From a phage, in sequence record PZ452579.1: DNA of 64,000 nt; one strand, written 5' to 3'. The position numbers were made by a program, and so were the translations under genes. Each line of letters starts with the position of its first letter. The first letter of the stretch is position 1. The notes under the pieces were generated by a model. It searched no databases and was not told the origin of the DNA. It saw only the letters and a list, made by a program, of their open reading frames with translations. Positions 3,325 to 50,270 of this stretch are shown here, piece after piece.

Positions 3325-3492
3325 CTATAGTAAAAGTTGGGTTTCGTTCAATTGCTCTTCTGAACTTTCTGAAACCGGCAATTGTTGGACATAATTATAA
3401 CAAGGACCAGGATGTGCTGGACCTTTGTCTGTTTCAACAACCAATGCAGAATCGATTGGAGTTTTACAGACAACACAAATCTTATCTGACAT
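3325..3492 (-). CDS. Small CxxC protein (55 aa), uvsY.-2-like; absent from the ORF track
   Basis: Manual translation MSDKICVVCKTPIDSALVVETDKGPAHPGPCYNYVQQLPVSESSEEQLNETQLLL; late promoter motif just upstream. Confidence 0.45.
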   Translation of the reverse strand: MSDKICVVCKTPIDSALVVETDKGPAHPGPCYNYVQQLPVSESSEEQLNETQLLL

Positions 3493-46646: not shown

Positions 46647-47318
46647 ATGGGAGGTAATATGGCAGCACCAAAAGTATCATTTTCGCCTAGTGATATTTTA
46701 TTTGGGTTGCTAGACCGCATTTTCAAAGATAACGCCTCTGGAAATATTCTTATTTCAAGAGTTGCTGTTGTAGTTCTTTTGTTCCTAATGGCACTAATAT
46801 GGTACAAAGGGAATATTTTTATGGATTATTACGTGAGGTCGAAATATGATACTTACACAGAAGTAATTCAAAAAGAAAGAAATACACGATTTGAATCTGC
46901 GGCTTTAGAACAACTACAAATAGTCCACGTCACATCAAGGGCGGATTTTAGTTCGGTGTATTCTTTCAGACCTAAAAATCTAAATTATTTCGTCGACCTT
47001 ATTGCGTATGAAGGTAAGTTACCTAGCACAGTAACTGAAAAATCTATGGGAGGATTTCCTGTTGATAAAACGACAGCAGAATATTCGGTCCATTTAAGTG
47101 GACTTCACTTTACTTCTAAAACAGATTTTGCTTTCTTACCTACCAAATCAAAAACTCCGGAACTGGCGTATATGTATAGTTGTCCTTACTTCAATTTGGA
47201 TAACATATATGCGGGAACTGTTTCTATGTATTGGTATAAGGGGTCGGATGTGTTAAATGAAGAACGCTTGGCTGCAATATGCAACCAAGCAGCAAGGATA
47301 TTAGGGCGGGCTAAATAA
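46647..47318 (+). CDS. t: Holin T
   Basis: 223 aa; strong identity to T4 holin (MAAPKVSFSPSDILFG..., single N-terminal TM, C-terminal ARILGRAK). Confidence 0.95.
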   Translation: MGGNMAAPKVSFSPSDILFGLLDRIFKDNASGNILISRVAVVVLLFLMALIWYKGNIFMDYYVRSKYDTYTEVIQKERNTRFESAALEQLQIVHVTSRADFSSVYSFRPKNLNYFVDLIAYEGKLPSTVTEKSMGGFPVDKTTAEYSVHLSGLHFTSKTDFAFLPTKSKTPELAYMYSCPYFNLDNIYAGTVSMYWYKGSDVLNEERLAAICNQAARILGRAK

Positions 47319-47591
47319 TTAGTTGTTAGAATACATCGTCAAATGGCGATAAATATTTTCAAAACCTTCATTGAATTCACTAATCAGTGTTTTCTTTTCT
47401 TCGGCAGTTAAATTTGTAATTAGTTTTCTGAACGAATTCTGATTTAGCTGCCGACCATCTTTTTTAATTCCAATCTCATTCAAGAATCCGATGAAATTTG
47501 CTCGGTCTTCAACAATATCTTCCCTCGAGAATTTAATCAAAATAGAAGCAACCGTAATAATTTCACGTACAATTTCAATATCTTTATTCAT
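47319..47591 (-). CDS. asiA: AsiA anti-sigma70 factor
   Basis: 90 aa; near-identical to T4 AsiA (MNKDIEIVREIITVASILIKFSREDIVE...). Confidence 0.95.
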   Translation of the reverse strand: MNKDIEIVREIITVASILIKFSREDIVEDRANFIGFLNEIGIKKDGRQLNQNSFRKLITNLTAEEKKTLISEFNEGFENIYRHLTMYSNN

Positions 47592-47625: not shown

Positions 47626-47655
47626 ATAGTACCATTATCAGTGTTGATTGTAAAC
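47626..47655 (-). promoter_or_regulatory. T4-type early promoter (minus) for asiA
   Basis: + strand atagta - 17 nt - tgtaaac. Confidence 0.55.
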
Positions 47656-47799
47656 AGCTTTTTCTACACTTTTAACGTAATCAGTGTAGTCTTCCTGTTC
47701 ATACGAGTGTAAGGCCAAGAATGTGGCTAATAGTTCATTATAGACTAAAGCCTCACGCTCACGTTCTGCCTCTACTACGTTCTGAAGATTATGGCTCAT
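47638..47799 (-). CDS. Hypothetical small protein (asiA.1 position)
   Basis: 53 aa from internal Met to avoid a 53-nt overlap with arn; low support. Confidence 0.4.
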   Translation of the reverse strand: MSHNLQNVVEAEREREALVYNELLATFLALHSYEQEDYTDYVKSVEKAVYNQH

Positions 47800-47800
47800 A

Positions 47801-48088
47801 TCATTCCTTATAACTATCAATGTAGTCCTGTATGTCAAAGAATGACATTTCATATTCTAGGGCGTTAAGAGCCCGTTCTTCAGTATAGTCAGAACCAAAG
47901 ACGATAGTGATTTCACCAGGCTTCATGTGATTGAAATCAACACTAAAAGGAATACGAGAACATACTTCGTCTGCCATATCTACGATAACACTACGACACA
48001 CTTCTCGGTTAACCTGATAAAGCTCTGCAAGTTCTTCGCAACGAATAACAAGTTCAGTGGCAGGATTTTCTTTTATTTTAGTAAGCAT
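47801..48088 (-). CDS. arn: Probable Arn (anti-restriction nuclease) by synteny
   Basis: 95-aa acidic protein immediately upstream of asiA as in T4. Confidence 0.6.
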   Translation of the reverse strand: MLTKIKENPATELVIRCEELAELYQVNREVCRSVIVDMADEVCSRIPFSVDFNHMKPGEITIVFGSDYTEERALNALEYEMSFFDIQDYIDSYKE

Positions 48089-48162
48089 AGTCTTTACCCT
48101 TATGTTTTTGTTTACGTTTAGATTGAAGTTCCGATTTCTTCTTGTCCTTATGGACAGAAGCC

Positions 48163-48390
48163 TTATTGAAATCGTGTTTTGCTACAAGATTGTTCATAAT
48201 GATTTATAACCTCATTTAAACATTTATAGGTAAAAGAAAACTTTTTAGCCACAGAACATTCGATGATGTGTTCTTTCAAATCTTTAGAGTCAGTATAACC
48301 CATCTCAGTAATAAAGTGGCGAATTAAAGCTTTATTCTTATCATTAACAGAATTAAAATAATCTGCTTTAGAATCAATTATTCTCATCAT
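48163..48390 (-). CDS. Hypothetical protein (arn-motA islet)
   Basis: 75-aa ORF. Confidence 0.55.
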   Translation of the reverse strand: MMRIIDSKADYFNSVNDKNKALIRHFITEMGYTDSKDLKEHIIECSVAKKFSFTYKCLNEVINHYEQSCSKTRFQ

Positions 48391-48655
48391 CTAATTTCCT
48401 TAATTGATATTGCAACGAGCTAATAATTTCTTCGTTCATTTTAATATACATGTCGCGCAAGAAAGGTTTTAACCCATCACGAATAATTGCTAACGTATCA
48501 CCTTTACATAAATTAACCAAATAAGGATGGTCTAAAGCATCCCAACCAGGCTGATTAGCATACATACCATAGTTTTCTTCCATCATATGATTAAGACGTT
48601 TGATATCTTGGATACGTGATTCAATAGCATCTTTCTGGAGTTGTTTAATATTCAT
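48374..48655 (-). CDS. Hypothetical protein (arn-motA islet)
   Basis: 93-aa ORF. Confidence 0.55.
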   Translation of the reverse strand: MNIKQLQKDAIESRIQDIKRLNHMMEENYGMYANQPGWDALDHPYLVNLCKGDTLAIIRDGLKPFLRDMYIKMNEEIISSLQYQLRKLDDENN

Positions 48656-49116
48656 TAATAAAGGTCCTCTGAATAAAGTTCTTTCTCACTTCCGCCACGT
48701 TCAATACGTACCTGTCCAGCATATGTTGCAATAATCATTGCTTCTTCACGAGTCCAGTAATTAGAGTATTGGTCGATAAAGCCTTGGTCGTCGCCACAAA
48801 CTTGTTGCGAGACTAATTGAGGACCAACTATATCAAGTACTTCAGCCATATCTTTAGAGTAATGACGAACTCCAGGAATAACCAGAGTTCCACCGCTCTT
48901 CAATTTAAACCTATTAGCTGCACATACTATAACACGTTGAACTTTTTGGTCATTATTCCAATAGCACGTTTGCCAACAGATTTCAGGAACTTCATTTATT
49001 ACATCATCAACAGAATAATTATAACCGTAGGACTGGAATTTTTCTGCTAGACTTTCAGGAGTCTCACGAGACAAGGCTAAATCTAATAACTCTAAACGTT
49101 CTTTAAATGATTTCAT
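48655..49116 (-). CDS. Hypothetical protein (arn-motA islet)
   Basis: 153-aa ORF, overlapping stop/start with neighbours. Confidence 0.6.
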
Positions 49117-49442
49117 TTAAACCATTCCTTAATACGTTGCCAAATAGATTTTTGTGCTTGTTTATTTACACCAATCGAACGAATAACCGGTTGTGACTGC
49201 TGGTATTCTTTATAATCTTCTTTATAAATTTCGTAAGCTGCATCAACAAATGAACTGATCGCTGCCATGTAGTTTTTACGAAGGCCAAATGGCGCGTCAT
49301 TATTTTCACGAATAACCGTATATTGGCCTGCTTTAATCTTTACAATTGTCCCTAAATAAGCCCCGTGGTACCAAATATCCCATCCTTCCTGAGTAGGTTC
49401 TGCACATTTACGAAGTTCGTTAATAATATTCAGCTTATTCAT
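49113..49442 (-). CDS. Hypothetical protein (motA.1 position)
   Basis: 109-aa ORF. Confidence 0.6.
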
Positions 49443-49452
49443 TATGTATTCC

Positions 49453-50085
49453 TCACAGTACGTTAGTTACAAGGGTAATGATTTCTTTGGACACATTAGG
49501 GAAGTCAATATAAGTATATTTACCACCGATCTTAATCTTAACATCATTTTCAAGAGAAGTAAACAGCTTTGATTCAGTTTCTGACATGTTGTATGCAAAG
49601 ATTCTAAGAGCGCCATCTCGACGAATTTCGATCTGACGAATACCTAGAACTCGTTTTGCAAATCGAACTTCCAAGTTACTACGGTTTTCACCAATTTCCT
49701 TAACTTCAACTTTATCTTTAATATTTTCAAAAACAAAGTTTGCTAATTCATGCATTTCAGGAGTAACTCCACGTGCTTTTCTAGTGTTACGTTTCTGAAG
49801 AAGTTCTGGAGCGTTTTCTTGGGCAAAGAGGTCTGCAGCTTTTTGGATAATATCCATTGCTTCGCCTGTTGCTACAAGTCCATCACCGGATTTTTCGACT
49901 AAACCTTTCTTAATCAATACACCAATGTTAGAGTTAACAACTGATGCATTGTATTCCGCTTCCAGAGCTTCACGGACATTGGCAGCAGTGGTGAAGTTGT
50001 TCTTAATGATATAAACCATTATTGCAGCAGTTTTTTCATTCAGAGCGTTTTCAGAAGCTTTGATGATGTAAGTAACTTTAGACAT
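49453..50085 (-). CDS. motA: MotA middle-transcription activator
   Basis: 210 aa; matches T4 MotA (MSKVTYIIKAS...VLIKKGLVEKSGDGL...). Confidence 0.95.
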   Translation of the reverse strand: MSKVTYIIKASENALNEKTAAIMVYIIKNNFTTAANVREALEAEYNASVVNSNIGVLIKKGLVEKSGDGLVATGEAMDIIQKAADLFAQENAPELLQKRNTRKARGVTPEMHELANFVFENIKDKVEVKEIGENRSNLEVRFAKRVLGIRQIEIRRDGALRIFAYNMSETESKLFTSLENDVKIKIGGKYTYIDFPNVSKEIITLVTNVL

Positions 50086-50123
50086 TTTATTTCTCCAATT
50101 TGGTTGTTTTGTTTTGATAGGTC

Positions 50124-50153
50124 TATAATATCATGTTTGAAGCACATGTAAAC
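50124..50153 (-). promoter_or_regulatory. T4-type early promoter (minus) for motA in a gataggtctata PeSL-like context
   Basis: + strand tataat/ataata - 16-17 nt - tgtaaac. Confidence 0.55.
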
Positions 50154-50170
50154 TGTTTTGTGAGAAAAAT

Positions 50171-50194
50171 GCACAAAAGGGAGCCGAAGCTCCC
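50171..50194 (-). terminator. UUCG-tetraloop hairpin terminator downstream of gene 52
   Basis: gggagc cgaa gctccc; minus RNA hairpin followed by UUUUGUGC. Confidence 0.55.
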
Positions 50195-50270
50195 TAATCA
50201 TGTTTGTCCAACCAATACAGCCAAATCACTAGTGCAGCTATTGCACTGAGAAATCCTAAGGCTAGGGCAC

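Follow-up and report, generated by a model that had tools for sequence, protein, structure and literature searches.

Orthologues of arn.1 to arn.4 in the putative early motA-asiA operon of an RB69-like phage and their possible role in counter-defence or host takeover

Four small open reading frames (ORFs) directly downstream of motA in the phage sequence record PZ452579.1 are identified by sequence comparison as the annotated arn.1 to arn.4 genes of RB69 and T4; they are already known rather than new. These orthologues lie in a putative early operon and would most likely serve counter-defence or host takeover, a reading to which a probability of roughly 0.55 is assigned. Such a role is plausible because the genes are dispensable, restricted to one host lineage, and apparently co-transcribed with a homologue of the restriction inhibitor Arn and with AsiA. 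The window referred to below is the whole stretch of 64,000 nucleotides that was analysed, and all features described lie on its minus strand.

Organization of the motA-asiA interval

Positions 48163 to 49442 contain exactly four ORFs, of 109, 153, 93, and 75 aa, and the ORF listing gives the same limits as the first-pass annotation. The first gene of the array, motA (49453..50085), encodes the activator of middle transcription and ends 10 nt upstream of arn.4. Its product matches the Pfam families MotA_activ (E = 2.4e-39) and MotCF (E = 2e-8) and shows 51% identity with T4 MotA in BLASTP. The arn.4 orthologue (49113..49442) encodes a protein of 109 aa, 12.8 kDa, and pI 9.2, with a precomputed Pfam assignment to PF26821 on 99%-identical relatives. 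The arn.3 orthologue (48655..49116) encodes 153 aa (17.6 kDa, pI 4.7) with a core assigned to T4_Y16D, and the arn.2 orthologue (48374..48655) encodes 93 aa (11.0 kDa, pI 5.3), with PF26819 precomputed on a 91%-identical relative. The arn.1 orthologue (48163..48390) is present in a full-length form of 75 aa (8.9 kDa, pI 8.5). The tight packing with overlapping stop and start codons described earlier is borne out at all three junctions: arn.4 and arn.3 overlap by 4 nt (ATGA), arn.3 and arn.2 by 1 nt (TAATG), and arn.2 and arn.1 by 17 nt. A Shine-Dalgarno-like GAGG/AAGGA motif precedes each of the four start codons.

The block was originally placed between arn and motA. This holds on the motA side; on the other side it holds by way of a remote Arn link, but a fifth gene of the block intervenes. 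This gene (48078..48197) encodes a highly basic protein of 39 aa (pI 10.1) that matches Pfam DUF7230 (E = 5.4e-13) and PHROG family phrog_1359 (E = 3.8e-22). It overlaps the 3' end of arn.1 by 35 nt and sits between arn.1 and the Arn-like gene. The protein is conserved in T4 (79%), VR20 (82%), and Hyena (69%) and occurs also in myPSH1140, CGG4-1, and EcS1; its gene is usually unannotated, as in the RB69 and T4 reference records. The Arn-like gene that follows (47801..48088) corresponds to RB69ORF259c and encodes an acidic protein of 95 aa with a net charge of -11. Next to it lies a small asiA.1-like ORF (47638..47799; 53 aa from an MSHNL start), which shows 100% identity with RB69ORF258c and weak similarity to T4 AsiA.1 in BLASTP and belongs to PHROG family 5245. 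The last gene of the array is asiA (47319..47591), encoding the anti-sigma-70 factor (Pfam AsiA, E = 3e-33; 75% identity with T4 AsiA).

A promoter-like site of the early sigma-70 type is found upstream of motA (50125..50152; TTTACA-16-TATTAT with an extended -10 TG); with 10 of 12 matches it scores highest of all scanned sites and is likely to be the start of a transcript covering the arn block. A terminator-like hairpin of 12 pairs followed by a T-rich run lies just 3' of asiA (47265..47291) and likely marks the 3' end of the transcription unit. No match to the MotA-box consensus of middle promoters is found between 47000 and 50300, and hence none inside the arn block. The sole match of an Rfam scan is a chance miRNA (E = 0.07), and the base composition of arn.1 to arn.4 shows no GC anomaly compared to the flanks.

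Identity of the four genes

The region shows 97 to 98.7% nucleotide identity with RB69-like phages, and the RB69 record carries annotated arn.1 to arn.4 genes at the matching positions. In BLASTP the four products show 97 to 99% identity with Arn.1 to Arn.4 of RB69 and 41 to 79% with the T4 orthologues (E values of 8e-22 to 4e-89). Arn.2 is 99% identical to its RB69 counterpart and 41% identical to that of T4, and Arn.1 shows 99% identity with RB69 Arn.1 and 79% with T4 Arn.1 over 38 aa. Gene order and strand between motA and arn/asiA are the same as in the annotated RB69 and T4 regions. The T4 and RB69 genes, known under the older names asiA.2 to asiA.7 and motA.-5 to motA.-1, fall into PHROG families common to T4 and the window.

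The four ORFs are real genes rather than chance frames because each has a full-length match to a PHROG family (E values of 1e-40 to 2e-69) and hundreds of tblastn relatives, down to ∼30% identity, and because substitutions relative to T4, VR20, and CGG4-1 fall mostly on third codon positions. For Arn.3 compared to T4, the substitutions at codon positions 1, 2, and 3 number 30, 12, and 69. All four genes are under purifying selection. The genes arn.1 to arn.4 entered the RB69 and T4 annotations two decades ago, and both Pfam and PHROG already contain their families; the finding as first stated adds nothing new.

The PHROG families of the four proteins are listed with function unknown, apart from a name-derived label of phrog_4452. 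No informative relatives of Arn.4, Arn.2, or Arn.1 were found. A BLASTP hint of paralogy between Arn.2 and Arn.4 (E ∼0.08) was rejected, with an hhalign probability of 4.8%.

The Arn homologue and the anti-restriction label

The 95-aa protein encoded next to the block shows no BLASTP similarity to T4 Arn. A profile of its positional family nevertheless matches PDB entry 3wx4 (T4 Arn) over nearly the full length with an E value of 2e-4, and hhalign relates the family to T4 Arn with a probability of 88% (E = 3e-6). The two proteins have a C-terminal D-x-x-D-Y motif and an acidic charge in common. By these comparisons the gene is assigned as a divergent homologue of T4 Arn, the McrBC inhibitor, recognisable only at the profile level.

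This relationship does not extend to the four genes of the block. None of the four ORFs matches T4 Arn by BLASTP, by phmmer against the PDB, or, for Arn.2 to Arn.4, by profile searches against the PDB, where the four proteins and three alignments give nothing below E = 0.07. The structure models of Arn.3 and Arn.4 show no fold resemblance to T4 Arn (3WX4). The strongly acidic character of T4 Arn as a DNA mimic is not found in Arn.1 to Arn.4 either: the net charges are +4 for Arn.4, -8 for Arn.3, -3 for Arn.2, and +2 for Arn.1, compared to -9 for T4 Arn and -9 to -15 for the proteins of the Arn slot (85 to 98 aa). Many Arn.1 to Arn.4 proteins are labelled "anti-restriction nuclease" in GenBank, UniRef, and PHROG; this label has no basis and is taken over from the gene name. 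Against the characterised anti-defence families in Pfam and PHROGs the four proteins give no match, the Pfam results being sub-threshold noise.

Arn.3 and the T4_Y16D domain

Arn.3 is built from a helical N-terminus specific for T-even phages (residues 1 to 45) and a core assigned to T4_Y16D (PF26092), which covers approximately residues 55 to 153. The PF26092 assignment is precomputed on a 96%-identical relative and on 118 of the 119 other listed relatives, and PHROG family 839, the equivalent of PF26092, matches Arn.3 with an E value of 1.9e-69. Among the matches of the Arn.3 family, the domain is placed C-terminally in 259 of 273. The invariant polar residues comprise R84-H85, Q111-G-F-x-D115, R123, Q135, and the terminal S149-E150-x-L-Y153-COOH, so that the protein ends in an invariant S-E-x-L-Y sequence. 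Such residues would fit a small enzyme, or else a ligand-binding pocket that the C-terminal tail closes.

Alone among the four proteins, Arn.3 has a wide family, which is very large and restricted to phages, with thousands of sequence clusters. Many large lytic phages that are unrelated to each other carry the domain, among them jumbo phages, Ackermannviridae, and Vequintavirus-like phages. A search of bacteria and archaea, with one genome for each of 185,579 species, yields 13 loci in total. The one locus examined in detail lies among prophage genes, and a second is directly adjacent to a phage integrase. The neighbours at the 13 loci include only single cases of Tad6 (a Thoeris inhibitor), an integrase, YopX, and a DpdA-like protein; single examples of the family stand beside DpdA-like and PAPS-reductase-like genes of DNA modification. 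In 35 distinct viral contigs there is no recurrent partner, with eight neighbour families appearing once each, and the associations with anti-defence genes are therefore anecdotes. Two metagenomic contigs show no informative neighbours, and a plasmid search returns one match with an uninformative context. The longest family members (244 to 434 aa, among the best 150 profile matches) carry no additional domains detectable with Pfam or PHROGs.

The confident structure model of Arn.3 matches no solved fold. In Foldseek, the core matches weakly inside three proteins of 767 to 1354 aa (E values of 5e-3 to 3e-2; 19 to 26% identity), which bear the name "Large polyvalent protein associated domain-containing" proteins. 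Nothing relevant was found in the literature on PF26092, DUF7230, or Y16D. As a large, phage-only family without a known fold, the Arn.3 domain merits biochemical work.

Dispensability and possible role

The genes arn.1 to arn.4 are dispensable for T4 on laboratory E. coli. All four T4 orthologues are classified as "Not Fit" in the genome-wide CRISPRi-ART screen and as "Non-essential" in HIDEN-SEQ, with an insertion at nearly every TA site. The HIDEN-SEQ challenges of T4 with RexAB, RnlAB, CBASS, DarTG1, DarTG2, minimal medium, and clinical isolates return other genes as hits; the text of that study names tk.4 as the single significant hit of the DarTG2 challenge. A comparison of two independently made T4 libraries is described there as giving no significant gene besides dmd. 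In one of the HIDEN-SEQ comparison tables, the arn genes show log2 fold changes of -0.05 to 0.75 with an adjusted p value of 1.

The early unit on the minus strand would run from the promoter through motA, arn.4, arn.3, arn.2, arn.1, the 39-aa ORF, the Arn homologue, and the asiA.1-like ORF to asiA; a single transcript of this kind is suggested by the sequence taken together with the T2 data discussed below. Within it, arn.1 to arn.4 would form the promoter-distal part of a tightly packed and apparently translationally coupled unit, and their products would be small, soluble, cytoplasmic proteins made as infection starts. Arn.1 to Arn.4 may target components found specifically in enterobacterial hosts. 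Their contribution would then be to counter-defence or host takeover, like that of Arn against McrBC and of AsiA against sigma-70, and not to phage replication or assembly. More tentatively, the Arn.3 core could be an unrecognised enzyme or a small-molecule sponge by which a widespread immune signal or effector of bacteria is neutralised. Arn.4, Arn.2, Arn.1, and the 39-aa protein might then be partners specific to enterobacteria or might counter defences independently, expressed from the same early operon as Arn.

The counter-defence reading is weakened by the near-universal conservation, which is unusual for anti-defence cargo with its normally quick turnover, and by the HIDEN-SEQ challenges, in which the hits were other genes. 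No homology or fold match assigning a function to any of the four proteins was found. The strongest alternative is that they serve the programme of the phage itself, as modulators of the passage from early to middle expression together with MotA and AsiA or as auxiliary factors of nucleic-acid or nucleotide metabolism, with no part in overcoming immunity. The invariable linkage and apparent co-transcription with motA and asiA would agree with such a function, as would the degree of conservation, which exceeds the usual level for anti-defence genes. A general metabolic helper would be in keeping with the spread of the Arn.3 domain over many unrelated large lytic phages, and the basic Arn.4 and 39-aa proteins would suit nucleic-acid binding. 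Acinetobacter and Aeromonas phages, however, possess MotA without the block, and in the former AsiA adjoins MotA. The two T4 screens show no fitness effect, and the four proteins are unlike any known family of transcription, replication, or nucleotide metabolism. A phage-internal function is considered rather doubtful. The role of arn.1 to arn.4 is a small question of T-even biology, posed by genes that are conserved, expressed early, located in one operon with a known restriction inhibitor, and not needed under laboratory conditions.

Conservation and variability of the block

The first-pass annotation described the four ORFs as an accessory islet in a variable part of T-even genomes. The term accessory is appropriate insofar as it refers to the dispensability seen in the two T4 screens, and inappropriate insofar as it implies a variable islet. 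By tblastn, Arn.4 is found in 1004 phage records, Arn.2 in 943, and Arn.1 in 807, compared to 1144 for MotA; among Escherichia phage records the numbers are 551, 553, and 489, compared to 550 for MotA. The arn genes thus occur in 71 to 88% of the MotA-carrying phage records and are nearly complete in phages of Escherichia, Shigella, and Yersinia, and the order of arn.1 to arn.4 is kept in seven genera of the Tevenvirinae (the RB69 and T4 regions and five further genera). These record counts point to a co-inheritance of arn.1 to arn.4 with the core genome. Counts and synteny across the Tevenvirinae, together with the uniform base composition, describe a block conserved in nearly all T-even phages of Enterobacteriaceae. 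Little variability is found across relatives, and homology to housekeeping proteins is not.

The real variability sits at the edges of the block and between deep lineages. The variable parts are the arn slot, arn.1, occasional inserted ORFs, and the spacer between motA and gene 52. VR20 carries an extra ORF of 112 aa and lacks arn.1, and CGG4-1 carries an extra ORF of 55 aa and a degenerate, truncated Arn.3 and lacks Arn.2. In Acinetobacter phage AbTZA1 motA abuts asiA and the block is absent; Aeromonas phage avDM3 has MotA and no arn block. Both MotA and AsiA are retained in the Acinetobacter and Aeromonas relatives. Arn.1 is found also in one T5-like Serratia phage. Such differences in the motA-asiA interval, along with Arn-slot proteins that are related only at the profile level, are what a hotspot exchanging recently acquired anti-defence cargo between T-even phages would produce. 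The presence of the genes in most MotA-carrying records and in essentially all of those from Escherichia, Shigella, and Yersinia, the constant gene order, and the normal GC content make this explanation improbable. The genes have, moreover, diverged along with the genomes (41 to 79% amino acid identity between Mosigvirus and Tequatrovirus), and within RB69-like phages the motA-asiA interval is collinear, with the sole indel located outside it between motA and gene 52.

Truncated annotations in T4

The annotated Arn.1 of T4 has 43 aa compared to 75 aa in the window and in RB69, and the annotated Arn.4 has 68 aa compared to 109 aa; the T4 reference genes arn.1 and arn.4 lack the ATG start present in the window. 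The annotated T4 Arn.1 is only the C-terminal part of the full-length form. The T4 sequence upstream of it, regarded as intergenic, aligns in frame with residues 1 to 29, with TTG in T4 at the position of the ATG in the window. Decaying or non-functional frames, kept by operon position alone, could account for these missing starts, for the truncated Arn.3 of CGG4-1, and for the lack of a fitness effect in the T4 screens, but are very improbable given the strong third-position excess in all four genes, their full-length conservation down to 30 to 35% identity across genera, and the fact that the "truncated" parts in T4 are still open and conserved in frame.

Comparison with known systems

T4 Arn, the DNA-mimic inhibitor of McrBC (PDB 3WX4), is an operon neighbour of the four genes, whose products are unlike it in sequence. 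Most members of PF26092 consist of the bare domain of 85 to 130 aa, to which the Arn.3 proteins of T-even phages add the 45-residue helical N-terminus. Large polyvalent proteins of phages contain conflict or anti-restriction modules that are delivered with the DNA. Their domains are parts of packaged giant proteins, whereas Arn.3 is a stand-alone protein that would be expressed early.

A closely related system is the arn operon of T2, in which arn.4-arn.3-arn.2-arn.1-arn is reported to form one abundant transcript, protected from RNase E by ArcZ, an sRNA of the host (Collins et al., bioRxiv 10.64898/2026.06.19.733364). Those authors suggest counter-defence for Arn.1 to Arn.4 without data. The window contains the same five-gene array with a much diverged Arn as the last gene. 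The complement of the ArcZ seed, CCAGGGAAA, which lies at the 3' end of arn.2 in T4 and T2, is absent at up to 2 mismatches from the coding strand of 48163 to 49442. This search replaced the folding of duplexes between the whole 56-nt 3' fragment of ArcZ and the operon, which yields meaningless long duplexes. The non-coding spacer of ∼70 nt with the RNase E motif GCAUU between arn.2 and arn.1 is likewise absent, its place being taken by the 17-nt overlap. The ArcZ/RNase E control described for T2 has no counterpart in this phage. The annotations of T4 and T2 leave 70 nt between arn.2 and arn.1, whereas the two genes overlap in the window; the GCAUU motif of T2 corresponds to CCACU in the homologous sequence, which here forms codons 1 to 29 of arn.1. 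The intact arn.1 indicates that the "intergenic region" of T2 and T4 is coding, which bears on the reading of the published ArcZ/RNase E model.

Identity and organization of the arn.1-4 genes

The minus-strand interval 48163-49442 encodes four ORFs of 109, 153, 93 and 75 aa (49113-49442, 48655-49116, 48374-48655 and 48163-48390, respectively). The first-pass annotation described them as tightly packed with overlapping stop and start codons, and the ORF listing reproduces all four exactly. The first junction is ATGA with a 4-nt overlap, the second is TAATG with a 1-nt overlap, and the third is an overlap of 17 nt; a Shine-Dalgarno-like motif lies 6 to 12 nt 5' of every start codon. [quoted passage not shown] The surrounding 47.3 to 50.3 kb is 97 to 98.7% identical in nucleotide sequence to RB69-like phages (genus Mosigvirus, Tevenvirinae), FL31 and RB69 included. 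[quoted passage not shown]

All four proteins are soluble, with a hydrophobic segment in none of them, and no PDB match is found for Arn.1-4 by sequence or for Arn.2-4 by profile. The predicted model of Arn.4 (pLDDT 80.7) shows a small alpha/beta domain and, detached from it, an amphipathic helix at the C terminus. Profile comparison with hhalign rejects Arn.2 and Arn.4 as paralogues. Many GenBank and UniRef records, as well as phrog_4452, label Arn.1, Arn.2, Arn.3 or Arn.4 as "anti-restriction nuclease"; none of the four shows any resemblance to Arn, and the label derives from the gene names alone.

Proposed transcription unit and flanking genes

The genes belong to one tight array on the minus strand, transcribed from right to left on plus-strand coordinates. 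The region's best site in the promoter scan, a sigma-70-type sequence (TTTACA-16-TATTAT with TG, 50152-50125), precedes motA (50085-49453), which opens the array ahead of arn.4. Behind arn.1 follow a 39-aa ORF, the 95-aa acidic ORF in the arn slot (48088-47801; RB69ORF259c, "hypothetical"), a 53-aa asiA.1-like ORF and finally asiA (47591-47319), with a terminator-like hairpin (47291-47265) on its 3' side. A perfect GC-rich palindromic hairpin, AGGGAGCCGAAGCTCCCT (50178-50195), separates gene 52 from the motA promoter; it is followed by a T-rich stretch on the minus strand and is likely a terminator insulating the motA unit. No MotA-box middle-promoter consensus occurs between promoter and terminator, compared to 13 elsewhere in the window; the region gives no Rfam family match, and its GC content of 33 to 37% equals that of the flanks. 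From this layout, we infer that motA through asiA are transcribed together as one early unit and that their translation is coupled. For T2, a single abundant transcript spanning arn.4 to arn has been reported (bioRxiv 10.64898/2026.06.19.733364).

The 39-aa ORF (48078-48197, minus strand; MNNLVAKHDFNKASVHKDKKK...) overlaps both arn.1 and the Arn homologue and shares the final 35 nt of the interval 48163-49442. Its product is very basic (pI 10.1), matches Pfam DUF7230 (E=5e-13) and phrog_1359, and is conserved in T4 (79%), VR20 (82%) and Hyena (69%) as well as in myPSH1140, CGG4-1 and EcS1. The gene is encoded yet unannotated in T4, RB69, VR20 and Hyena.

The proposed flanks were arn and motA; motA is confirmed, and the arn slot contains a protein without BLASTP similarity to T4 Arn. 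Arn-slot proteins from six phages share strong acidity and a C-terminal D-x-x-D-Y motif, with occupants of different genera related to each other at the profile level only. Their profile finds PDB 3wx4 (T4 Arn) as its best match (E=2e-4, almost full length; hhalign probability, 88%), a match driven by members closer to T4 Arn, so that for the window protein itself we infer the homology. The two matches make the 95-aa ORF a probable, much diverged and remote Arn homologue.

Conservation of the block

A tblastn search of 50,697 phage records finds MotA in 1144 (Escherichia, 550; Klebsiella, 164; Shigella, 79), Arn.4 in 1004 (551, 164 and 78), Arn.2 in 943 (553, 139 and 78), Arn.1 in 807 (489, 108 and 74) and Arn.3 in 1604 (690, 242 and 85); Arn.4 is full length in 995 of its 1004 records. 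The annotated loci compared cover seven Tevenvirinae genera: Arn.4 and Arn.3 occur in every one, Arn.2 in six, and Arn.1 is detected in Mosigvirus and Tequatrovirus only, to which tblastn adds many Klebsiella phage records. Extra ORFs occur occasionally, in VR20 and the Salmonella phage CGG4-1. In CGG4-1, Arn.3 is a degenerate 75-aa remnant (L013 3830-4057) devoid of the CAANR...RH segment and the SE-x-LY terminus, and both Arn.2 and Arn.1 are missing, an example of block decay in Gelderlandvirus. On these counts and loci, the block is not the variable islet proposed earlier; turnover occurs at its edges, and arn.1-4 form a conserved unit particular to T-even phages that infect Enterobacteriaceae. 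In the Acinetobacter phage AbTZA1, the block is absent and asiA directly adjoins motA; the Aeromonas phage avDM3 also lacks it. Substitutions relative to T4 at the three codon positions (17/11/48 for Arn.4 and 30/12/69 for Arn.3) reflect purifying selection, which acts on all four genes.

The only indel across the 3-kb query among RB69-like phages falls between motA and gene 52, outside the block, and it is in this spacer that the neighbourhood varies. In many RB69-like phages, LF82-9 and Shf125875 among them, the spacer is extended by ∼320 bases that include a 71-aa ORF (L002 3287-3791 in an RB69-like relative), an insert lacking at window 50086-50270. Outside the Straboviridae, an Arn.1 homologue (38% identity) is found near a DNA ligase gene in the T5-like Serratia phage Kamaji (Demerecviridae; L031 2417-2701).

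The Arn.3 domain family

Relatives of Arn.3 carry the precomputed Pfam assignment PF26092 (T4_Y16D), and a profile run against 1.84 billion cluster representatives yields 5105 members at E<=1e-3. The domain comprises ∼95 residues with the signature RRIVCAANR...G-x-RH-x-D...QGFIDQ...REEA...AGQI...LFSE-x-LY, and its end coincides with the protein C terminus in 259 of 273 matches. Its invariant residues (Arg-His, Gln-Gly-Phe-x-Asp, Arg and, at the terminus, Ser-Glu-x-Leu-Tyr) suggest a role in catalysis or in the binding of a ligand. Longer members contain no extra recognisable domain. Matches in BFVD are uncharacterised phage proteins, together with three weak ones that fall within "large polyvalent protein" sequences. 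With only 13 bacterial or archaeal loci in 185,579 species (one genome each), the family is essentially restricted to phages; L022, the sole bacterial locus examined in detail, has prophage genes as flanks, and a different one adjoins a phage integrase.

Gene neighbours are heterogeneous, with no recurrent partner across 35 distinct viral contigs. The T4_Y16D gene of the Paraferrimonas prophage (L022 5995-8199) overlaps the 5' end of a PAPS-reductase-like gene, behind which comes a gene resembling queuine tRNA-ribosyltransferase (DpdA); on a contig from a Bacteroidetes MAG (L027 6001-7204), the domain gene lies ∼320 nt upstream of a homologue of Tad6, a type I Thoeris inhibitor. These neighbourhoods are single cases and not a pattern.

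Possible roles

Two genome-wide T4 screens classify arn.1-4 as "Not Fit" (CRISPRi-ART) and "Non-essential" (HIDEN-SEQ, with 13/13, 21/22, 33/34 and 16/16 sites hit in arn.1, arn.2, arn.3 and arn.4), which supports "accessory" in the sense of dispensable. One of the HIDEN-SEQ comparison tables gives the arn genes without significant change, and the hits that the study names for its defence-system challenges and clinical-isolate infections are other genes. The authors of the T2 arn operon study describe the functions of Arn.1-4 as unknown and "conceivably" counter-defence (bioRxiv 10.64898/2026.06.19.733364).

Arn.1-4 may be early-expressed, host-directed factors serving counter-defence or takeover, a tentative reading with a probability of roughly 0.4. 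Such a role would explain their retention in nature despite neutrality on laboratory K-12, as well as the absence of the block from relatives infecting other bacterial families. The main rival, which is less likely, would make them non-essential aids to the phage's own early programme or to nucleotide metabolism; in its favour are the unusually high conservation of the block and the occurrence of the Arn.3 domain in diverse, unrelated large lytic phages. The original interpretation is supported in part: the genes are dispensable and may be host-directed, yet they are not variable, and they are already known. What remains of value is the role of this conserved early operon, together with a large Arn.3 family without a solved structural relative.

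Comparison with T4 and the T2 ArcZ model

The T4 arn.4 gene is annotated as 68 aa, and 41 open, conserved codons 5' of it match the N terminus of the window protein (L003, the T4 locus, 3335-3457, versus window 49320-49442, minus strand); where the window has ATG, the T4 reference reads ATA.

In T2, the host sRNA ArcZ stabilises the arn operon: it pairs at the 3' end of arn.2 and works against an RNase E site within the 70-nt arn.2-arn.1 "intergenic region" (bioRxiv 10.64898/2026.06.19.733364). T4 carries CCAGGGAAA at this 3' end, complementary to the ArcZ seed UUUCCCUGG, whereas the four-ORF interval of the window contains no seed complement with up to two mismatches. The RNase E motif reported as GCAUU for T2 is CCACU in the window, and the ArcZ/RNase E module therefore is not carried over to this phage. 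The T4/T2 "intergenic region", RNase E site included, gives an in-frame, stop-free alignment with codons 1 to 29 of the window arn.1 (48304-48390, minus strand, versus L003 2307-2393), and the extended T4 frame shows 71% identity over 72 codons. The annotated 43-aa T4 Arn.1 is probably a truncated call. T4 has TTG at the position of the window ATG, so the ArcZ site CCAGGGAAA covers codons 2 to 4 of the extended frame. Instead of occupying a spacer, the T2/T4 ArcZ module may sit at the beginning of a longer arn.1.
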